From NCBI GenBank assembly GCA_965531045.1, contig CBESNZ010000001.1, positions 1 through 36,573 of the forward strand: a DNA stretch of 36,573 bases. Reading direction: 5' to 3'. This document shows, piece after piece, positions 2,131 through 20,566 of this stretch. Source of the DNA: an uncultured Acidimicrobiales bacterium (GTDB taxonomy: Bacteria > Actinomycetota > Acidimicrobiia > Acidimicrobiales > SHLQ01). A program made the position numbers and the translations under genes. Under the pieces are notes generated by a model that was not told the origin of the DNA, did no database searches, and saw nothing but the letters and a program-made list of their open reading frames with translations. How positions within the stretch are numbered: the stretch's first letter is position 1; the number at the start of each line of letters is the position of its first letter.

Positions 2131-3201
2131 TCACAGCGGGGTGGTGAGCAGGTCGAGCAGTGCGGCGTGGGAAGCTTCGAGTGTCCATCGTTCGAGGTAC
2201 TCGCCCTGGGTGTGGGCAATCGTTGCGTCGCCCGGACCGAGGTTGATGGCCGGTACGCCACGCTCGCTGAAAAACGCCACGTCGGTCCAGCCGAGCTTGG
2301 CCCGCACCTCGAGGTTGTTGCGCGCGATCATTCCGGCGATCGTCGGATGGTCGAGCCCCGGGCGAGCGGCCGGGGACAGGTCGACGACCTCGAACGAGTC
2401 GCCGTCCTCGAGGAACGGGTCGAGGATCTGGCGCACATGGGCCACGGCGTCGTCGGTGGAACGATCGGGGGCGAACCGATGGTTGATGGTCAACTCGACC
2501 TCGTCGGGGACCACATTGCCGGCCACTCCCCCGTCGACGAACACCGCCTGCAATCCCTCGTGATACGTGCAGCCATCCACGGTGGGCCGGCGGGGCTCGT
2601 ACGCGTCGATGACGGTCAACAGCGCCCCGAGTCGGTGGATCGCGTTTCGTCCCATCCAGGCTCGTGCGGTGTGCGCTCGGGCCCCGGTCAGCGTGACGAT
2701 GCAGCGCATCGTGCCTTGGCACCCGGCTTCGACGGCGCCGGACGTGGGTTCGCCGAGGATGGCGACATCGCCGACCAACAGCTCGGGCGCCTCGGCGAAC
2801 AGCTCGCGCAGGCCGTTGTGTTCGACCGCCACTTCTTCGCGGGCATAGATGACGTAGGTGACATCGTGCACCGGCTCGGCCACGGTGCGGGCGAGCTCGA
2901 GCATCACCGCCAGGCCGCCCTTCATGTCGGTCGATCCCAGCCCCCACAGCGTGTCGCCGTCGATTCGGGCGGTGGCGTTGTCGTTGACCGGCACCGTGTC
3001 GCTGTGACCGCCGAGTATCACCCGATACGGGCGGCCGAGTTGGGTGCGCGCCACCACGTTGTCGCCGACGCGGTGTACGTCGAGACCGTCGATCTTGCGG
3101 AACTCGGTTGCAAACCAGGTCGCCAGTTCAGCCTCTTCGAAGCTGACCGAAGGCATGTCGACCAGCGCAGCGGTAAGGGCGAGGAGATCGGTGTCGGTCA
3201 C
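2131..3201 (-). CDS. dapE: Succinyl-diaminopimelate desuccinylase (M20 metallopeptidase)
   Basis: MTDTDLLALTAALVDMPSVSFEE...ILGGHSDTVP...GLGSTDMKGG are M20/DapE hallmarks. GTG start lies 9 nt after the dapD stop. Confidence 0.85.
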   Translation of the reverse strand: MTDTDLLALTAALVDMPSVSFEEAELATWFATEFRKIDGLDVHRVGDNVVARTQLGRPYRVILGGHSDTVPVNDNATARIDGDTLWGLGSTDMKGGLAVMLELARTVAEPVHDVTYVIYAREEVAVEHNGLRELFAEAPELLVGDVAILGEPTSGAVEAGCQGTMRCIVTLTGARAHTARAWMGRNAIHRLGALLTVIDAYEPRRPTVDGCTYHEGLQAVFVDGGVAGNVVPDEVELTINHRFAPDRSTDDAVAHVRQILDPFLEDGDSFEVVDLSPAARPGLDHPTIAGMIARNNLEVRAKLGWTDVAFFSERGVPAINLGPGDATIAHTQGEYLERWTLEASHAALLDLLTTPL

Positions 3202-3210
3202 ACAAAAAGC

Positions 3211-4032
3211 CTAGAGCGCGACGCCGTGGGTGCGCAGCACGTCGTTGAGCGCACCTTTGTCGTGACGCTCGCCGGGGGTGAGGTGCTTGATCACCAACGC
3301 ACACGGGAGCCCGAACGTGCCGCCGCCAAGGTCCTTCGGTCGTGTCGCCATGATGCACACGGTCCATGGCGGCACGTGGCCACGGCTCAGCTCTTCGCCG
3401 GTCTCGGCGTCGATCACCGGGATCGAACCGTTGAGGATGAGACCCGAACCGATGACGGCCCCCTCCCCCACCCGAGCGCCTTCGGTGATCATCGCCCGGC
3501 TGCCGATGAACACCTCGTCCTCGATCATCACCGGGCTGGCGACCGCTGGTTCGAGCACGCCCCCGATGCCAACCCCGCCCGCAACGTGCACGTTCTTGCC
3601 GATCTGGGCGCACGAGCCGATCGTGGCCCACGTATCGACCATCGAGTTCTCGCCGACATGGGCGCCGATGTTGATGTAGCTCGGCATCATCACCACGCCG
3701 GGCGCCTGATACGAGCCCCAACGCGCCGATGCGCCAGGAACCACACGGACGCCGCGGGCTTGATAGTTGGTCTTCAACGGGATCTTGTCGGCGTACTCGA
3801 ACGGTCCAAGCTCGATCGTGGTCATCTTCGAGAGCTTGAACGTGAGCAGGATGGCGAACTTCAGCCACTGGTGCACGACGACCTCATCATCCACGATCTC
3901 AGCCACGCGGGCTTGGCCATTGTCGAGCAACTCAATCGCCGCCCAGACGACATTGGTCACCTCGGTGTCGTCGGGATCGAGGGAGTCTCGTCGCTCCCAC
4001 AGTGTTTCGATCTGTGCCTGCAGTTCAGCCAT
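3211..4032 (-). CDS. dapD: 2,3,4,5-tetrahydropyridine-2,6-dicarboxylate N-succinyltransferase
   Basis: 273 aa, collinear with the E. coli-type DapD as I recall it (HQWLK..ILL.F...MPSYINIGA.V.EG.MVDTWATIGSCAQIGKNVH..GGVGIGGVLEP). The ATG at 4032 overlaps the dapC stop (TGATG). The long 5' extension of the 3211-4659 ORF overlaps dapC and is rejected. Confidence 0.92.
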   Translation of the reverse strand: MAELQAQIETLWERRDSLDPDDTEVTNVVWAAIELLDNGQARVAEIVDDEVVVHQWLKFAILLTFKLSKMTTIELGPFEYADKIPLKTNYQARGVRVVPGASARWGSYQAPGVVMMPSYINIGAHVGENSMVDTWATIGSCAQIGKNVHVAGGVGIGGVLEPAVASPVMIEDEVFIGSRAMITEGARVGEGAVIGSGLILNGSIPVIDAETGEELSRGHVPPWTVCIMATRPKDLGGGTFGLPCALVIKHLTPGERHDKGALNDVLRTHGVAL

Positions 4033-5159
4033 CAGGACGAAACCCGACGGAGCGCGATCCGCAGCTGCTCGACGGGTTGCACTGCCGCGACTCGGACGTG
4101 TCCCGAACCGGCTTCGCCGTAGAACTCGCCAGGGCTCACCACGATGCCGGCCGTCTCGGCCAACCGGTGCGCCAATGCCCACGCGTCGCCTTCGGGAGCA
4201 GCCACCCACAGGTAGAAGCCACCCTTGGGCAGCTCGCACGGGATTCCCAGCCGGGAGAAGATCTCGGCGCCGACCTCGAGGCGTTCGCGGTAGTGCTCGC
4301 GGATTCCGTCGACATGGGCGTCGTCGTCGAACGCCACGACGGCTGCGGCCTGCACCGGCCCGGGAACCATCATGCCGGCGTGCTTTCGGACCTCTTGCAG
4401 GTAGTGCACCAGTTCGGTGTCGCCGGCATAGAACCCGGCACGGCCACCGGCGAAGTTCGACCGTTTCGACAGCGAGTGGACGGCGACCACGCCATCGGTG
4501 CCGTGCTCGAGAATCGATCGGCCGGGGCCGGACCACGTGAATTCGATGTAGCACTCGTCGCTGAACACCGGCACGCCGTTGGCACGTCCCCATGCGGCAA
4601 CCGCCTCGAGATCGTCCAACGCGCCGGCGGGATTCGCCGGGCTGTTGACCCACAGGCACAGCGCGCGAGCGGCATCACTCGGGTCGATGGCCGACAGGTC
4701 GAGCCGCCACTGATCGTCGACGGGCACCGCGACCGCGCGGCAACTGCCGAGCGTCGCGCCCATGGCGTAGCTCGGGTAGCTGACCGCTGGATACAGGATC
4801 GTGTCGCGGTCCGGGGTACGGAGCCGCAAGAAGTTGGGGAGCCCGGCGACGAACTCCTTCGACCCGACCGTCGCACCGAGCTGTGTCCCTGGGTCGACCC
4901 CCACGCCGAATCGTCGGTCCAACCAGCGGGCGCCGGCAGTGCGAAATGCCTCGCTACCGATCGATGGCGGGTAGCCACGCTCGAGATTCGACGTGGACAA
5001 CGCTTCGACGACGGCCGTCGGTGGAGGGTCGAACGGCGCGCCGATCGACAGATCGATCGCGACGCCGTGCGAGGCCGCGGCCACCGCCTTCACCTCGTTG
5101 AGACGGTCGTACGGATACGGCGGCGGAACCAAGCCCTTGGACACACTGCCTTGGGTCAT
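4032..5159 (-). CDS. dapC: Succinyldiaminopimelate aminotransferase (class I PLP aminotransferase, actinobacterial DapC type)
   Basis: PYPYDRLNEVKAVAAASHGVAIDLSIGAPFDPPP...YPPSIGSEAFR...SLSKRSNFAGGRAGF has the aminotransferase fold and the SxSK Lys motif. It is translationally coupled to dapD. Confidence 0.8.
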   Translation of the reverse strand: MTQGSVSKGLVPPPYPYDRLNEVKAVAAASHGVAIDLSIGAPFDPPPTAVVEALSTSNLERGYPPSIGSEAFRTAGARWLDRRFGVGVDPGTQLGATVGSKEFVAGLPNFLRLRTPDRDTILYPAVSYPSYAMGATLGSCRAVAVPVDDQWRLDLSAIDPSDAARALCLWVNSPANPAGALDDLEAVAAWGRANGVPVFSDECYIEFTWSGPGRSILEHGTDGVVAVHSLSKRSNFAGGRAGFYAGDTELVHYLQEVRKHAGMMVPGPVQAAAVVAFDDDAHVDGIREHYRERLEVGAEIFSRLGIPCELPKGGFYLWVAAPEGDAWALAHRLAETAGIVVSPGEFYGEAGSGHVRVAAVQPVEQLRIALRRVSS

Positions 5160-5211
5160 CGAACGGCCAACAAATCGGTACGCATTGCGTCACCCTACCG
5201 GCGGGTGCAAC

Positions 5212-5694
5212 CTAGATTTCGAGGGGGCAGCTGAGGTGGGGATCGAGCACCTGGGTGAGGCGGCCGAGGCCGAGGAAGCTGGCCATCAGCACCGACAGGT
5301 CGAGGATCTCGTCGTCGGCCCATTCGGCCCGCAGCCGAGACCAGAAGTCATCGTCCATCGCCAAGTGGTTCTGCCCGAACAGGTCGGCGTATTCGATAGC
5401 GACCCGCTCGCGATCGCTGAACCGCTCGGAGGTCTGCCAGTCGGCCACCTCGGCATAGTCATCCTCGGATAGTCCTTGCTCCGCCAACTGCGAAGCGCGT
5501 GTACCGAGTCAAATGGGACAGTCGTTGATCTGAGCGATGCGCATTCGCACGAGTTCACGTTCGCGAATCGCCACCTTGGAGTGCTCGTACGCCTTCATGG
5601 AGAACGTCGCGGCGGCCATGCCCATGTCGGGGTTGACCCCCCACAAACGCATGAGCTCCTCGCCGTCACCATCGGGAACATCGATTCGTGCCAT
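5212..5694 (-). CDS. Carboxymuconolactone decarboxylase / AhpD-like family protein with an in-frame TGA (5511-5509) at the second position of the CxxC motif; candidate selenoprotein (alternative: pseudogene)
   Basis: The two track ORFs (5509-5694 and 5212-5487) are in the same frame, separated only by TGA plus 7 sense codons. The joined product reads ...RERELVRMRIAQINDCPI[TGA]LGTRASQLAEQGLSEDDYAEVADWQTSERFSDRERVAIEYADLF.... This is collinear with the CMD-family pattern (..RV.Q.NGC.YC......A...G...E....L.DW..S..F...ERAAL.....). The 98 codons after the TGA keep coding character. Confidence 0.65.
5464..5508 (-). promoter_or_regulatory. Candidate bacterial SECIS-like stem-loop immediately 3' of the in-frame UGA
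   Basis: RNA: UGA-CUCGG-UACACGC-GCUUCGC-AGUUG-GCGGAGC-AAGGACUAU-CCGAG. The upper stem is 7 bp (one G-U pair) with apical loop AGUUG, and the lower stem is 5 bp starting right after the UGA. The apical loop begins 19 nt after the UGA. Codons in this stretch are unusually A/T-ending (ACA, GCT, TTG, CAA, GGA, CTA) for this genome. Confidence 0.5.
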
Positions 5695-5736
5695 GGCGCC
5701 AACCGTAGACGCACCACGCCGATGCCGAAAGCCTTG

Positions 5737-8079
5737 TCAGGCGTCGACCAGTTCACGCTCGGGTTCGGCGGTGGGCGGACCCGGCTCGTCAGCCTCGACT
5801 GCGTGCCCTTCGACGTCGATCTTGGGCAGGATGCGGTCGAGCCATGCCGGCAGCCACCAGTTTCGGGCGCCGAGCAGTTCCATCGTCGCGGGAACCAACA
5901 ACATGCGCACGAGCGTGGCATCGAGGAACACCGCGCTGGCGAGACCGAAGCCGAACAACTTGATGATGCGATCGTCCTCGAACATGAAGCTGCCGAAGAC
6001 GACGACCATGATCGCGGCCGCCGCGGTGATGACCTGCGCGGTCGCGGCGAGTCCATTGGCCACCGATTCGACCGGGTCGCCGGTCTTGTCGAAATCCTCC
6101 TTGATGCGGGAGAGAAGGAAGACCTCGTAGTCCATCGACAGGCCGAACACGATGGCGAACAACATCATGGGGATGAAGGGCTCGATCGGCGCGCCGCCGG
6201 CCAAACCGAAGATGCTGGCTCCCCAACCCCACTGGAAGATGGCGACCGCCAACCCGTAGGCGGCCGAGATCGACAGCATGTTCATGATGACGGCCTTCAC
6301 CGGCACCAGGAGCGATCGGAACACCGCCATCAACAAGAAGAACGACAGCGCCAGGACCACGCCGAAGAACACCAACAGACGGGCCGACAAGTATTCGGTG
6401 AAGTCGATCGAGGCGGCCGTCGAGCCGGTGACGAACGGCGTCACGTCGGTTCCGGCAACGGCGGCCGGTATGACGTCGTCGCGCAACACGGTGACCAGGT
6501 CTTGGGTCGATTCGTCCTGCGGGCCGCCGGTCGGCACGACCTGGATGATGGCCGCAGTCGGGCTCGTGAGATCGTTCGGCAGCGGTGGGCTGACTTCGGC
6601 GACGAGATCCAATTGACCAATGGTGGCGGACAGGGCGTTGAGGGTTGCGAGATCCTGCGGGCCGGAGATTTCGGTGGCCAGGATCAGCGGTCCGTTGAAA
6701 CCGGGGCCGAAGCCTTCGGCGAGCATGTCGTACGCCCGTCGGGTGGTGGTTTCCTCGCTGAAGTTACCTTCGTCGGAGAAGCCGAGTCGCAAGGACAACA
6801 CCGGGATCGAGAGCACGAGCAGGATCGTCGTGCCGATCGCAGCTGCGGCCAGAGGCCGACGCTGGATGACGCGACTCCAGCGGTACCAGAGGGTCTGGTC
6901 GAGCGGCTTTTGTTTGCGACTGGGCACCTCGGCCTTCAGGCCCGGCACGGCGAAGCCCAAGCTAACGACGGCTACCGCGGCGATGGCGAGACCGGCGGCG
7001 ATTCGCGGATCGAGGTTGAGGCCGATGGTCAGCAAGGCGCCGGCGGTGAGCGCCGATGCCACGAGACCCTTGACCCGGGTGCGTTCGATGCGTTCGCCGG
7101 CGAAGCCGAGGAACGCCGGCAGCAACGTGATCGAGGCCAGCATCGTGACCAGGACCGTGCTGGCCGCGGCGATTCCCAGACCCGACACGAACGGCAGGCC
7201 CATAACCAACATGCCCAGAAGCGACACCACCACGGTGAGGCCGGCGAAGATGACCGCGCGGCCCGACGTGTCAAGAGCAACGGTCGTGGCCTGCTCGGAG
7301 TCGAGCCCAACGTGGAGCCCTTCGCGGTAGCGGGTCACGATGAACAGCGCGTAGTCGATACCAACGCCGAGACCGATCATCGCACCGAGCACCGTCGCGA
7401 AACTCGGCATCGACATGAACGAGGACAACAGCGTGATGATGCCGGTCCCCACGCCGACACCCATGACGGCGACACCGATCGGCAGGCCCATGGCCAGAAC
7501 CGATCCGAACGCCAGAATCAGCACGACGATGGCGAACGCCAGGCCGATCAGCTCGGATTCAGGCGGGTGGAACTCGGCGAGAATCGCGCCGCCGACCTCG
7601 ACGGTCAGGCCATCGATCTGCGGTGCCCGCTCCAAGATTTCCGTGCCCATTGGACCCGTGATCTCCTGGTCGACGTCGCGATCGACGTTGATCGTGGCGA
7701 AGGCGAGCTGACCGGCCAGTTCGCCGTCGGTTGCGATCTGCCGGGCACCCAGCGGGGCGTAGGGACTGATGGTGGAGAGTCCCTCCATCGTGTCGATCGC
7801 TTCGAACAACTCGGTCATGGCCGCTTTGATCTCGGGATCGTCAACGCCTTGTTCAGCCTGGAAGACGACGGTTCCGGTGTAGCCGCTGCCAAAGTCGGGA
7901 AACTGCTCTTTGATGATGTCGAACCCGGTACTGCTGTCCGACTCGGGGCTCGAGGGATTGCCCTCAAAGGTGCCGTTCGCTGCCCGCGCCACGAGCATCA
8001 CGGTGATGAGGCTGAGCACCCACAGGCCGACCGCCCACCAGCGGCGCTGAAAAGACCATCGTCCAAGTTTTACGAGCAC
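5737..8079 (-). CDS. MMPL family (RND superfamily) membrane transporter
   Basis: 780 aa with two 6-TM bundles and soluble loops. The N-terminus (MLVKLGRWSFQRRWWAVGLWVLSLI) and C-terminus (ELLGARNWWLPAWLDRILPKIDVEG) are typical MMPL signatures. Confidence 0.9.
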   Translation of the reverse strand: MLVKLGRWSFQRRWWAVGLWVLSLITVMLVARAANGTFEGNPSSPESDSSTGFDIIKEQFPDFGSGYTGTVVFQAEQGVDDPEIKAAMTELFEAIDTMEGLSTISPYAPLGARQIATDGELAGQLAFATINVDRDVDQEITGPMGTEILERAPQIDGLTVEVGGAILAEFHPPESELIGLAFAIVVLILAFGSVLAMGLPIGVAVMGVGVGTGIITLLSSFMSMPSFATVLGAMIGLGVGIDYALFIVTRYREGLHVGLDSEQATTVALDTSGRAVIFAGLTVVVSLLGMLVMGLPFVSGLGIAAASTVLVTMLASITLLPAFLGFAGERIERTRVKGLVASALTAGALLTIGLNLDPRIAAGLAIAAVAVVSLGFAVPGLKAEVPSRKQKPLDQTLWYRWSRVIQRRPLAAAAIGTTILLVLSIPVLSLRLGFSDEGNFSEETTTRRAYDMLAEGFGPGFNGPLILATEISGPQDLATLNALSATIGQLDLVAEVSPPLPNDLTSPTAAIIQVVPTGGPQDESTQDLVTVLRDDVIPAAVAGTDVTPFVTGSTAASIDFTEYLSARLLVFFGVVLALSFFLLMAVFRSLLVPVKAVIMNMLSISAAYGLAVAIFQWGWGASIFGLAGGAPIEPFIPMMLFAIVFGLSMDYEVFLLSRIKEDFDKTGDPVESVANGLAATAQVITAAAAIMVVVFGSFMFEDDRIIKLFGFGLASAVFLDATLVRMLLVPATMELLGARNWWLPAWLDRILPKIDVEGHAVEADEPGPPTAEPERELVDA

Positions 8080-8100
8080 GGGAGCCTCCGGGGCATTGAT

Positions 8101-8132
8101 GTCCGTGAATACGGACCGATATCCGTGAATAC
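8101..8132. promoter_or_regulatory. Putative operator upstream of the MMPL gene: palindrome GTCCGT-gaat-ACGGAC plus an 11-bp direct repeat TCCGTGAATAC x2 (period 20 bp)
   Basis: Read directly. The repeat copies are at 8102-8112 and 8122-8132 and the palindrome at 8101-8116. The motif lies 22-53 nt upstream of the MMPL start (8079). Confidence 0.45.
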
Positions 8133-8215
8133 AGGCTACGAATCGGCCAAAGGACTACCCCGCTGAGGGCGATGCGCCATCGGTCACACGGCGAACCGCG
8201 TACCGCCGGCGAGTT

Positions 8216-9667
8216 TCAGACCGAAGCGGGCTCTTGGCCGACGATCCAGTCTTTGAGTCGGGAGGCGGAATCGTCCTCGAGGCGGGCACGGAATCGCATG
8301 CCGGCGTCCTCGGCGGTCTCGACCAGAACTTGCCCCTCGCGATGCACCTGCGCAATGACATCGCCCCGTTCGAACGGAACGAACAGTTCGGTGACCACGG
8401 TCATCGAACGAAGCCGGTCGCCGATGGCGGCGAGCAGGTCGTCGACGCCTTCCCCGGTCTGGGCCGACACGGCGACGGACCCTTCTCGACGCGCGGCGCG
8501 GGCGGCAACATCGGGGCTCTGGTCGAGCTTGTTGAAGACCACCAACTCGGGCACGTCGCCGGCGCCGATCTCGATGAGGACGTCGCGTACCGCGGCCATG
8601 TCGCCGTCGGGATCGGGACCCGACCCATCGACGATGTGGACCAAGAGGTCGGCATCGATCACCACGTCGAGGGTCGACCGGAAGGCCTCGACCAATTGGT
8701 GGGGAAGTTTGCGAACGAACCCAACCGTGTCGGTGACGAAGACCTTCTCGCCGCCGGGCAGTTGCAGCTGACGAGTGGTGGCATCGAGCGTGGCGAACAA
8801 ACGATCCTCGACCAGGACACCCGCATCGGTGAAGCGGTTGAGCACCGTCGACTTTCCGGCGTTGGTATAGCCGACCAACGCCACCGAGCGATTTGCCGTC
8901 CGGCGTCGTTGTTTGGATTGCGTCGAGCGGTTCTTCTTGACCTTGCGCAGTTGCTCCTCGAGCTTGTGCATTCGCCGCACCAATCGCCGACGGTCCACCT
9001 CGAGTTGGGTCTCGCCGGGACCGCGGGTGCCGATGCCGCCGCCTTGCTGGCTGAGCTTCTTGCCCATGCCCCGCAAGCGCGGCAAACGATACTTCAGCTG
9101 CGCCAGTTCGACCTGCGCCTTGCCCTCGGGACTACTGGCATTCTGGGCAAAGATGTCGAGGATGACCGCCGTGCGGTCGAGGGCTGTGCGTTTGAGGATC
9201 TTTTCGAGATTGAACTGTTGGGCGGGGCTGAGCTCGTTGTCGAACACGACCGTGTCGCAGTCGAGCTCCTCGCTGATGTACTTGACCTCCTCGACCTTCC
9301 CCTTGCCGATGAAGGTGGCGGGGTCCGGACGTTGACGCCGTTGATCGATTCGGGCAACCGGATCGGCGCCGGCGGTATCGACCAGCAGCGCAAGTTCGTC
9401 GAGCCCTGCCTCGGTGTCCGCGTCGGTTTCGCCGTCGAGCGTCACGCCGACGAGAACGATGCGCTCACGGAATGACCGCTCGATGAGGCCGCCGGATTCG
9501 CCGCCGAAATCACCGAACGCGCCGCGGTGGCTCTCGCCCGGCGCAGTCTGGTCGCCGGCGGCCAGATCGTCGTCGGGCTCATCCTCGTCGGGGGCCATGT
9601 CGACAGCCGCAACGGGGAGCTCGGCTTCGTCGATCTCGTGTTCTGGGCGATCGTCTTCGTTACCCAC
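8216..9667 (-). CDS. hflX: GTPase HflX
   Basis: HflX N-domain (FIGKGK.EE...; GTRGPGETQLE.DRR) and G-domain (VALVGYTNAGKST..N; DTVGF; NK.D). The GTG start overlaps the dapF stop by 8 nt. The exact start is uncertain because the N-terminal tail is acidic and low-complexity. Confidence 0.9.
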   Translation of the reverse strand: MGNEDDRPEHEIDEAELPVAAVDMAPDEDEPDDDLAAGDQTAPGESHRGAFGDFGGESGGLIERSFRERIVLVGVTLDGETDADTEAGLDELALLVDTAGADPVARIDQRRQRPDPATFIGKGKVEEVKYISEELDCDTVVFDNELSPAQQFNLEKILKRTALDRTAVILDIFAQNASSPEGKAQVELAQLKYRLPRLRGMGKKLSQQGGGIGTRGPGETQLEVDRRRLVRRMHKLEEQLRKVKKNRSTQSKQRRRTANRSVALVGYTNAGKSTVLNRFTDAGVLVEDRLFATLDATTRQLQLPGGEKVFVTDTVGFVRKLPHQLVEAFRSTLDVVIDADLLVHIVDGSGPDPDGDMAAVRDVLIEIGAGDVPELVVFNKLDQSPDVAARAARREGSVAVSAQTGEGVDDLLAAIGDRLRSMTVVTELFVPFERGDVIAQVHREGQVLVETAEDAGMRFRARLEDDSASRLKDWIVGQEPASV

Positions 9668-10511
9668 AGGGCACCGTGACCTTTCCGACGTATGTCGTGG
9701 ACCCGGTGAGGACCACCGCGTTACCTTCGAGGGTCACCGTGGCCGCTCCCCCGGGCATGTGGACCTCGACGCGGTCGCCCACGAGTCCTTGCGAGCGGGC
9801 TGCGAACGCGACGACCGAAGCACCGCTGCCGCACGCCTGGGTGATACCGGCGCCACGCTCCCACACTCGCATCGTGATGGTGTCGGGACCACTGACGGCG
9901 ATGACGTGCACGTTGATACCGCCCAGCACCTTCTCGACCGCGGTCCCGAAGGAGGGCAGGTCGACGGCTTCGGGGTCGGCCACCACAAACACGATGTGGG
10001 GGTTTCCCACGTCGCCGGTGAACCATCGGGCGTTGGCGTCCGCCGGCAAAACACCACCGGCCTCGGCCACCTGTTGCAGGAAATCCGCGGGAACGTCGAC
10101 GCCGGGACGAACCTCGCCCATCTCGACACTGGCGACCCCTTTAACCCGGTCGTCGAGCCGAACGTCGACCAGCCGCTCACCGGCCAACGTGTGGGCCGCG
10201 ATGGCGAGCCGATCGACTCCCTGGGCCATGGCGATCGCCTGGCCGAAGCACCGCAATCCGTTGCCCGACACCTCGGCGGCCGAGCCGTCGCTGTTGAACA
10301 GGCGAAACTCCCAGGATTGTGGCTGGGTGGTGTCGTTCAGCGGAGTGGCAAAGATCAGTCCGTCGGCACCGACGCCGGTCTGACGGTCACACATCGATAA
10401 CGCCAACGCCGCGGCCCTGCCGTCGGGCCACACATCAGGAGATGTTGGTCCGAGCGCGACCAAGAAGTCGTTGCCGAGTCCGTGGTGTTTGGTGAGCGAA
10501 AGCTCGGTCAT
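9660..10511 (-). CDS. dapF: Diaminopimelate epimerase
   Basis: MTELSLTKHHGLGNDFLV... (GNDF motif), catalytic Cys contexts (SGNGLRC, ACGSGA). The start at 10511 is chosen over the 10931 ORF start because that extension lacks homology-like sequence. Confidence 0.9.
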   Translation of the reverse strand: MTELSLTKHHGLGNDFLVALGPTSPDVWPDGRAAALALSMCDRQTGVGADGLIFATPLNDTTQPQSWEFRLFNSDGSAAEVSGNGLRCFGQAIAMAQGVDRLAIAAHTLAGERLVDVRLDDRVKGVASVEMGEVRPGVDVPADFLQQVAEAGGVLPADANARWFTGDVGNPHIVFVVADPEAVDLPSFGTAVEKVLGGINVHVIAVSGPDTITMRVWERGAGITQACGSGASVVAFAARSQGLVGDRVEVHMPGGAATVTLEGNAVVLTGSTTYVGKVTVPCG

Positions 10512-20029: not shown

Positions 20030-20155
20030 ACAAGCAAGGTACGACCTCACGTCACGTCAGTTGCAAGCACTTCTTCGTCATCGACGCTCGGGGAACTCGT
20101 CGACCGACAAAAGCGTTCCTAGAGTATGAGAAACCCCTTCGCCAAGGAGCGACGA

Positions 20156-20566
20156 ATGACGACCTCCGAATACACCGACGCCGAGCTGCGTGAGCGCCTC
20201 ACCACCGAGCAGTATCAAGTAACACAACACGCCGGAACCGAACGAGCCTTCACCGGCGAGTACTGGGACTGCCACGACGATGGCGTGTACCGCTGCGTGG
20301 TGTGTGACGAAGAGCTGTTCTCCAGCGACACCAAATTCGAGTCCGGCAGCGGCTGGCCCAGCTTCTTCGCAGCGATGGCCGACGACAAGGTACGGGTCGA
20401 GTCCGACGCCAGCATGGGCATGGTCCGCACCGAAGCACTCTGCGCCAAGTGCGGCGCCCACCTCGGCCACGTCTTCCCCGACGGACCCGCACCCACCGGC
20501 GACCGGTTCTGTATGAACTCGGCCTCGCTACGCCTCGATCGCGACGACGCGAGCGAAGAAGAGTAA
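20156..20566 (+). CDS. msrB: Peptide-methionine (R)-S-oxide reductase
   Basis: YRCVVCDEELFSSDTKFESGSGWPSFF...CAKCGAHLGHVF.DGP.PTG.RFCMNS shows both CxxC zinc motifs and the catalytic Cys. AAGGAG lies 6 nt before the ATG at 20156. Confidence 0.93.
   Translation: MTTSEYTDAELRERLTTEQYQVTQHAGTERAFTGEYWDCHDDGVYRCVVCDEELFSSDTKFESGSGWPSFFAAMADDKVRVESDASMGMVRTEALCAKCGAHLGHVFPDGPAPTGDRFCMNSASLRLDRDDASEEE

Follow-up and report, generated by a model that had tools for sequence, protein, structure and literature searches.

AhpD-like proteins with a CxxU motif, i.e., with selenocysteine (Sec) in the redox centre, have been described as selenoproteins since 2005. The Sargasso Sea survey reported 27 sequences of an AhpD-like protein and 4 of a carboxymuconolactone decarboxylase (CMD) domain-containing protein of this type (PMC1088965), and the GOS survey reported 299 sequences of AhpD-like 1 (COG2128) and 70 of AhpD-like 2 (pfam02627), also with CxxU (PMC2398784). 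A 2026 review enters AhpD-like selenoproteins under TIGR01926, PF02627, NF041047 and NF041238 (PMC13188914). These sources bear out the preliminary description of the locus presented here, which had mentioned such proteins from bacterial and marine surveys, and the long record of the CxxU class makes the gene less novel than had first been supposed.

Among canonical members of the fold, the proton relay of PA0269 has its counterparts in Glu118, Cys130 and Cys133 of Mycobacterium tuberculosis AhpD, and a histidine (His55 of PA0269, His137 of M. tuberculosis AhpD) has been called invariant and essential (PMC3141380). Within the class Acidimicrobiia, use of Sec has been reported for the Actinomarinales: each of the 84 complete Actinomarina genomes contained selA, selC, selD and a divergent selB, and Actinomarina belongs to another order of the class (preprint 10.64898/2026.04.03.716425). 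This preprint was the only connection found in the literature between selenoproteins and Acidimicrobiia, which are not mentioned by Peng et al. 2016.

The window (the whole stretch of DNA analysed, 36,573 nt) is essentially an entire 36.6-kb metagenome contig from an uncultured member of the Acidimicrobiales. Its minus strand very probably encodes, at 5694..5212, one AhpD-like protein of 160 residues in which the UGA at codon 62 is recoded to selenocysteine (U62). The 483 nt span 161 codons from ATG to TAG (160 residues plus the stop), and the TGA at 5511-5509 is the only internal stop. Completeness of the gene was indicated by its single frame, its Pfam PF02627 match, the architecture of the orthologues and the pN/pS values on both sides of the TGA. 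As the preliminary description had stated, two small ORFs lie here in one frame, and both coordinates and ORF list agree with this: a 61-aa ORF (5694..5509) and a 91-aa ORF starting at TTG (5487..5212), both on the minus strand, are separated by the TGA and seven sense codons (LGTRASQ). The local sequence reads RERE47LVRMRIAQIND-C59-P-I-[TGA62]-LGT-R66. With Cys put at codon 62, residues 23-104 of the joined product matched PF02627 (CMD) with E = 5.7e-11 and a score of 42.7 bits, above the cut-off of 23, in agreement with the proposed 160-residue CMD/AhpD-like read-through product. The split into two fragments that had been expected of standard gene callers was likewise encountered in public records as 61-aa and 91-aa pieces. 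The window's own record holds 47-aa and 78-aa fragments from another gene caller, and the gene was fragmented (61 + 91 aa, or 47 + 78 aa) in every assembly examined. The TTG miscalled as the start of the 91-aa ORF (5485..5487, minus strand) lies in the apical loop of a candidate hairpin (see below), and four 91-aa database fragments (P0003, P0016, P0024 and P0117) all start at it.

The TGA fell on the second Cys column of the CxxC motif. Full-length homologues of about 160 aa were found by the hundreds in the protein database, at 56% identity or less, and all displayed C-x-x-C at this place. In a 55-sequence alignment, C59 (TGT codon at 5518..5520, minus strand) and the Cys at position 62 were invariant in 54 of the 54 full-length homologues, so that the placement of the TGA at the second redox residue, claimed from the letters alone, was confirmed by an invariant Cys column. 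TGA was found at the identical column in 15 further assemblies, whose proteins were 28-87% identical to that of the window: ten Acidimicrobiales or Acidimicrobiia metagenome-assembled genomes (MAGs; 54-86%), one Myxococcota, one Acidobacteriota and three metagenome contigs. All 16 Sec forms (the window, L003, L004, L005, L007-L011, L014-L019 and L075; alignment A5 comprises the 15 without L075) thus carry TGA there, and because 15 independent assemblies share it, the match of the column is far beyond chance.

The nearest database relatives were four clusters of 91-aa fragments (71-87% identity), and their contigs were all split in the same manner, as 61 aa, TGA and 98 codons. Scanning species-representative genomes with the protein gave 71 loci, nearly all from Acidimicrobiia/Acidimicrobiales MAGs and the closest 86% identical; 56 of them were Cys forms. 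Cys stood at column 62 in L012, L013, L020 onward, L058, L062 and L064, and TGA in L007-L011 (Acidimicrobiales, 71-86% identical), L014-L018 (Acidimicrobiia, 54% identical, local sequence QINQCPI*LGWR), L019 (Myxococcota MAG JAYZFK01, 10001-10510, 48% identical) and L075 (Pyrinomonadaceae MAG, 9314-9754, 28% identical). Orthologues with TGA at the same column, proposed at the outset as something to look for, are therefore at hand. The case named against Sec, i.e., close relatives with TGC or TGT and signs of decay in this strain, is not what was found, since the relatives keep the TGA and degenerative changes are absent. In a neighbour-joining tree without bootstrap, Sec and Cys forms were interleaved in one half of the family, a pattern that fits the Sec/Cys interconversions known among bacterial selenoproteins (PMC1794560).

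The window protein shares with the CxxU selenoproteins of the metagenome surveys the PF02627 superfamily, Sec at the second Cys and abundant Cys homologues, as well as, 3' of the UGA, a hairpin of bacterial type that has a G in its apical loop. It differs from them in scoring below every NCBIfam cut-off and in belonging to a subfamily centred on Acidimicrobiia. The best of the AhpD-related models, NF053654, gave 58.6 bits against a curated cut-off of 310; TIGR01926 scored 30.3 (cut-off 81.8), NF041047 16.8 (cut-off 110) and NF041238 13.2 (cut-off 175), and TIGR04169 likewise scored under its curated cut-off. Since every NCBIfam protein or selenoprotein model stayed below cut-off, the protein was assigned to a separate subfamily found mainly in Acidimicrobiia, and the most fitting description is that of a new member, at subfamily level, of an established selenoprotein class.

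The fold was modelled on a Cys homologue of equal length, P0004, standing in for the window protein, to which it is 51% identical over a full-length MAFFT alignment and 55% identical by BLASTP. The AlphaFold2 (AF2) model of P0004 (pLDDT 92.2) had PA0269 and Atu0492 as its top PDB matches, with TM scores of 0.79-0.87, and through this model the window protein is predicted to adopt the all-alpha AhpD-like fold, with residue 62 in the initial turn of the short helix 60-64. Bmp8, a thiol-dependent debrominase, was also among the fold-search matches. By sequence, the closest solved relatives were again the single-domain AhpD-like proteins PA0269 (PDB 2o4d, 2ijc and 7xw1) and Atu0492 (2gmy), with E values around 1e-8 and 20-26% identity.

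Active-site residues were only partly those of canonical AhpD. The proton-relay residues Glu36, Cys48 and Cys51 of PA0269 align with E47, C59 and U62, and the Glu-x11-Cys-x-x-Cys arrangement is present as E47-x11-C59-P-I-U62, with Sec for the second Cys; U62 thereby takes the place of PA0269 Cys51 and of M. tuberculosis AhpD Cys133. The canonical His was not found: PA0269 His55 is replaced by Arg66 (codon at 5497-5499, minus strand), at +4 from the second Cys, here and in all 54 homologues. Another invariant His, H110 (codon at 5365-5367, minus strand), is located elsewhere in the protein. The invariant Arg gives the subfamily its signature, E47-x11-C59-x-x-U/C62-x3-R66. Because Arg66 stands for the canonical His, the protein should be kept apart from canonical AhpD, and peroxidase-type chemistry is not assured.

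A candidate SECIS hairpin was found directly downstream of the TGA, at 5496..5478 (minus strand), i.e., 16-34 nt from the U of the UGA. It consists of a 7-bp stem and a 5-nt AGUUG loop (GCUUCGC-AGUUG-GCGGAGC), with the loop G and U at +24 and +25, and was found in the same register in 14 Acidimicrobiia sequences, the window included, and in the Myxococcota sequence. In L017, the hairpin was kept through a one-nucleotide register shift, with the loop AGUU, and in L075 it was a different one, its loop likewise containing GU. The AGUUG loop and the stem core of the Myxococcota locus L019 were identical to those of the Acidimicrobiia forms, a likeness that suggests either horizontal transfer of gene and SECIS together or a binning error.

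Covariation was assessed over 15 sequences, 13 of them distinct. Pairing was kept in 91% of the cells, and four of the seven pairs had changed on both sides. The covariation score was 0.372 vs 0.145 in shuffles, none of 500 shuffles reached 0.372, and controls in which the partner was slid by 1-3 columns gave 0.119 or less. Compensatory changes included U-A to G-C in L019, G-C to U-A in L010, and a change from U-G to G-C that was coupled to an amino-acid change (Ser/Glu to Ala/Gln); as the hairpin lies within coding sequence, part of its conservation reflects constraint on the protein. Minimum free energy of the 33 nt following the codon did not differ between Sec (n = 9) and Cys forms (n = 55; Mann-Whitney p = 0.21), and the folding z-score of the window sequence was -0.15. 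Folding energy is not discriminating in such GC-rich genes, so that it is position and covariation, and not stability, that argue for the hairpin. Bacterial SECIS elements are poorly represented in Rfam, and it was thus expected that a scan of 5200-5700 with E values up to 10 would return no match other than a spurious IRES.

Judged from sequence, the candidate hairpin fits a bacterial SECIS. Like the E. coli fdhF SECIS, it is located within coding sequence just 3' of the UGA and carries GU in its apical loop, at +24/+25, to be compared with G23/U24 in the fdhF loop. It differs from the fdhF element in being shorter (7-bp stem, 5-nt loop) and in showing no bulged U, and its role in SelB binding is predicted.

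Genes for Sec insertion were searched for in the window and in related loci. Annotation and Pfam displayed no selA, selB or selD among the window ORFs, the window contained no tRNA, and ARAGORN detected no tRNA-Sec in the window and 60 related loci. In the same ARAGORN results, loci from two Acidimicrobiaceae MAGs with the Cys form displayed a tRNA with the four-base anticodon gacg (L040:9133-9219, plus strand) and a tRNA-Ser with anticodon ACT (L043:19503-19583, minus strand). When about 1.28 Mb of mostly related loci were searched by tblastn with E. coli SelA, SelB and SelD, only a CysN GTPase in L076 was recovered. It is these negative searches that leave some doubt about the Sec reading.

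A second gene with TGA at a Cys position was found on L001 (the same contig as L009), which derives from the Acidimicrobiales, is 87 kb long and also bears an AhpD-like orthologue of 76% identity. This SelL-related, Prx-like gene (L001:7355-7915, plus strand, TGA at 7493-7495; also in L002 and L009) is located 2 kb upstream of the AhpD-like orthologue and matched NF040769 with 138.5 bits (cut-off 120). Its TGA falls on the first Cys of CxxC, giving UxxC (FHRHLH-U-LPC, with FHRHLACLPC in Cys forms), and the same TGA column was found in L081 (named Acidimicrobiales, TGA at 1068) and L083 (TGA at 9971), at 56-58% identity. About 110 of the best 120 database relatives were N-terminally truncated, at 125-135 aa, which suggests that the UxxC family is widely mis-annotated. 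The gene gives indirect support for Sec use in the lineage. The window also encodes a methionine sulfoxide reductase MsrB (20123-20563, plus strand), identified by its Pfam SelR domain (E = 2.8e-50) and located at a distance of 15 kb from the AhpD-like gene; its ORF is uninterrupted, i.e., it is a Cys form and not a selenoprotein.

An otherwise intact gene broken by one stop, which gene callers render as two ORFs, could also be a CxxC AhpD-like gene killed by a change of TGC or TGT to TGA. The probability of such a nonsense pseudogene is next to negligible: the TGA is retained in 15 further assemblies, the most distant of them at 28% protein identity, these orthologues differ at many synonymous sites in their DNA and are not one sequence assembled several times, and a covarying hairpin follows the stop. 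Selection also speaks against decay. Over seven full-length clade-A sequences, pN/pS was 0.278 for codons 1-61, 0.331 for codons 63-69 (from the TGA to the supposed TTG start) and 0.281 for codons 70-160, and the clade-A sequences were without frameshifts or further stops; the claim that coding character persists downstream of the TGA is upheld by a ratio of 0.28 on both sides. The same seven intervening codons weigh against two polypeptides of 61 and 91 aa, the latter started at TTG 5487, that would assemble into one AhpD-like fold. Although the TTG is kept in most orthologues and is used by gene callers, L011 has TTA, a non-start codon, at this place, no GGAGG-like Shine-Dalgarno sequence was seen by inspection before the TTG, and purifying selection acts on the codons between the two ORFs, where substitutions in the codons for Thr, Arg and the first Ala were all synonymous. 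A split gene would also lose the invariant second redox residue together with R66, and the presence of the TTG is explained by its being part of the AGUUG loop. Two separate polypeptides are thus extremely unlikely, and the pN/pS values together with the TTA of L011 exclude both a decaying pseudogene and a second ORF started at TTG.

It is very unlikely, too, that the UGA is translated as something other than Sec, either through reassignment in the lineage (e.g., to Trp or Gly) or through near-cognate read-through (Cys, Trp) independent of a SECIS, a reading in whose favour the negative searches for Sec machinery speak. TGA ends the MMPL gene directly upstream on the same contig (5739-5737), and the AhpD-like orthologues of L001, L003 and L005 themselves end in TGA; since TGA ends ordinary genes on the same contigs, UGA is not reassigned. 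Read-through TGA is confined to the redox Cys column, where a SECIS-type hairpin accompanies it, and the window and twelve Sec-form loci displayed no other convincing case in a scan whose GC3 filter also missed the SelL-related gene, spotted by eye through its truncated Pfam annotation. Taken together, the conserved TGA, the selection, the covarying hairpin and the use of TGA as an ordinary stop led to the rejection of pseudogene, split gene and reassignment, and the candidate selenoprotein of the preliminary description is supported by the Cys column, the conserved TGA, the selection and the covarying hairpin.

Selenocysteine insertion at UGA62 would proceed by a mechanism that is not new, in a class already known. 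The mRNA hairpin 16-34 nt after the U of the UGA would bind SelB carrying Sec-tRNA(Sec), which SelB would bring to the ribosome at UGA62. The product would be a thiol/selenol oxidoreductase whose redox centre, C59-x-x-U62, lies where a helix begins. If U62 works like its counterparts in AhpD-like proteins, it may attack, as a nucleophile, a peroxide or an oxidised partner protein; C59, its presumed resolving partner, would convert the resulting intermediate into a selenenylsulfide, to be re-reduced by a cellular thiol system. We infer SelB-dependent insertion and the presence of sel genes in the organism, as well as the substrate and the redox partner.

No obvious redox partner gene adjoined the AhpD-like gene within the window. 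The locus consists of the co-directional genes miaB, miaA, dapF, hflX, MMPL, AhpD-like, dapC, dapD and dapE, followed by lexA on the opposite strand. Other window ORFs identified with Pfam were recA, a MerR-glyoxalase, msrB, cinA, a radical-SAM MiaB/RimO-like gene and an ECF sigma factor, together with MFS, amidase, Na/Ca exchanger and ftsK genes. The order hflX, AhpD-like, dapC, dapE was partly conserved between the window (2131-9733), L004 (1368-3881) and L008 (6036-8745); L004 and L008 are without MMPL, which in the window is located between hflX and the AhpD-like gene. In L007 and L009, the AhpD-like gene was found in unrelated contexts.

With class and mechanism known, novelty is modest and lies in the lineage, the subfamily and the change from His to Arg. 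A broader reading, put forward tentatively and at somewhat less than even probability, is that these genes represent a hitherto unrecognised subfamily of selenoenzymes with the AhpD fold, centred on Acidimicrobiia (E-x11-C-x-x-U-x3-R), with a chemistry perhaps unlike the peroxide reduction of AhpD, whose gene and SECIS have moved together between phyla (Myxococcota, possibly Acidobacteriota). The chemistry may differ because Arg replaces the catalytic His, and thiol-dependent dehalogenases, e.g., Bmp8, share the AhpD fold. If this reading is true, then together with the widespread truncated UxxC genes related to SelL it would mean that Sec decoding is common in the Acidimicrobiales, of which full-text literature searches found no report.

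The locus exemplifies a recurring annotation error in public data, by which a selenoprotein gene is stored as fragments, and the truncated relatives of the SelL-related protein show it on a yet larger scale. The Sec and Cys homologues form a clean set with a short, covarying SECIS, usable to train or test selenoprotein finders in high-GC genomes. The Acidimicrobiales are an abundant and poorly cultivated order of the Actinomycetota, and the gene adds to the evidence that they use selenocysteine in redox defence.
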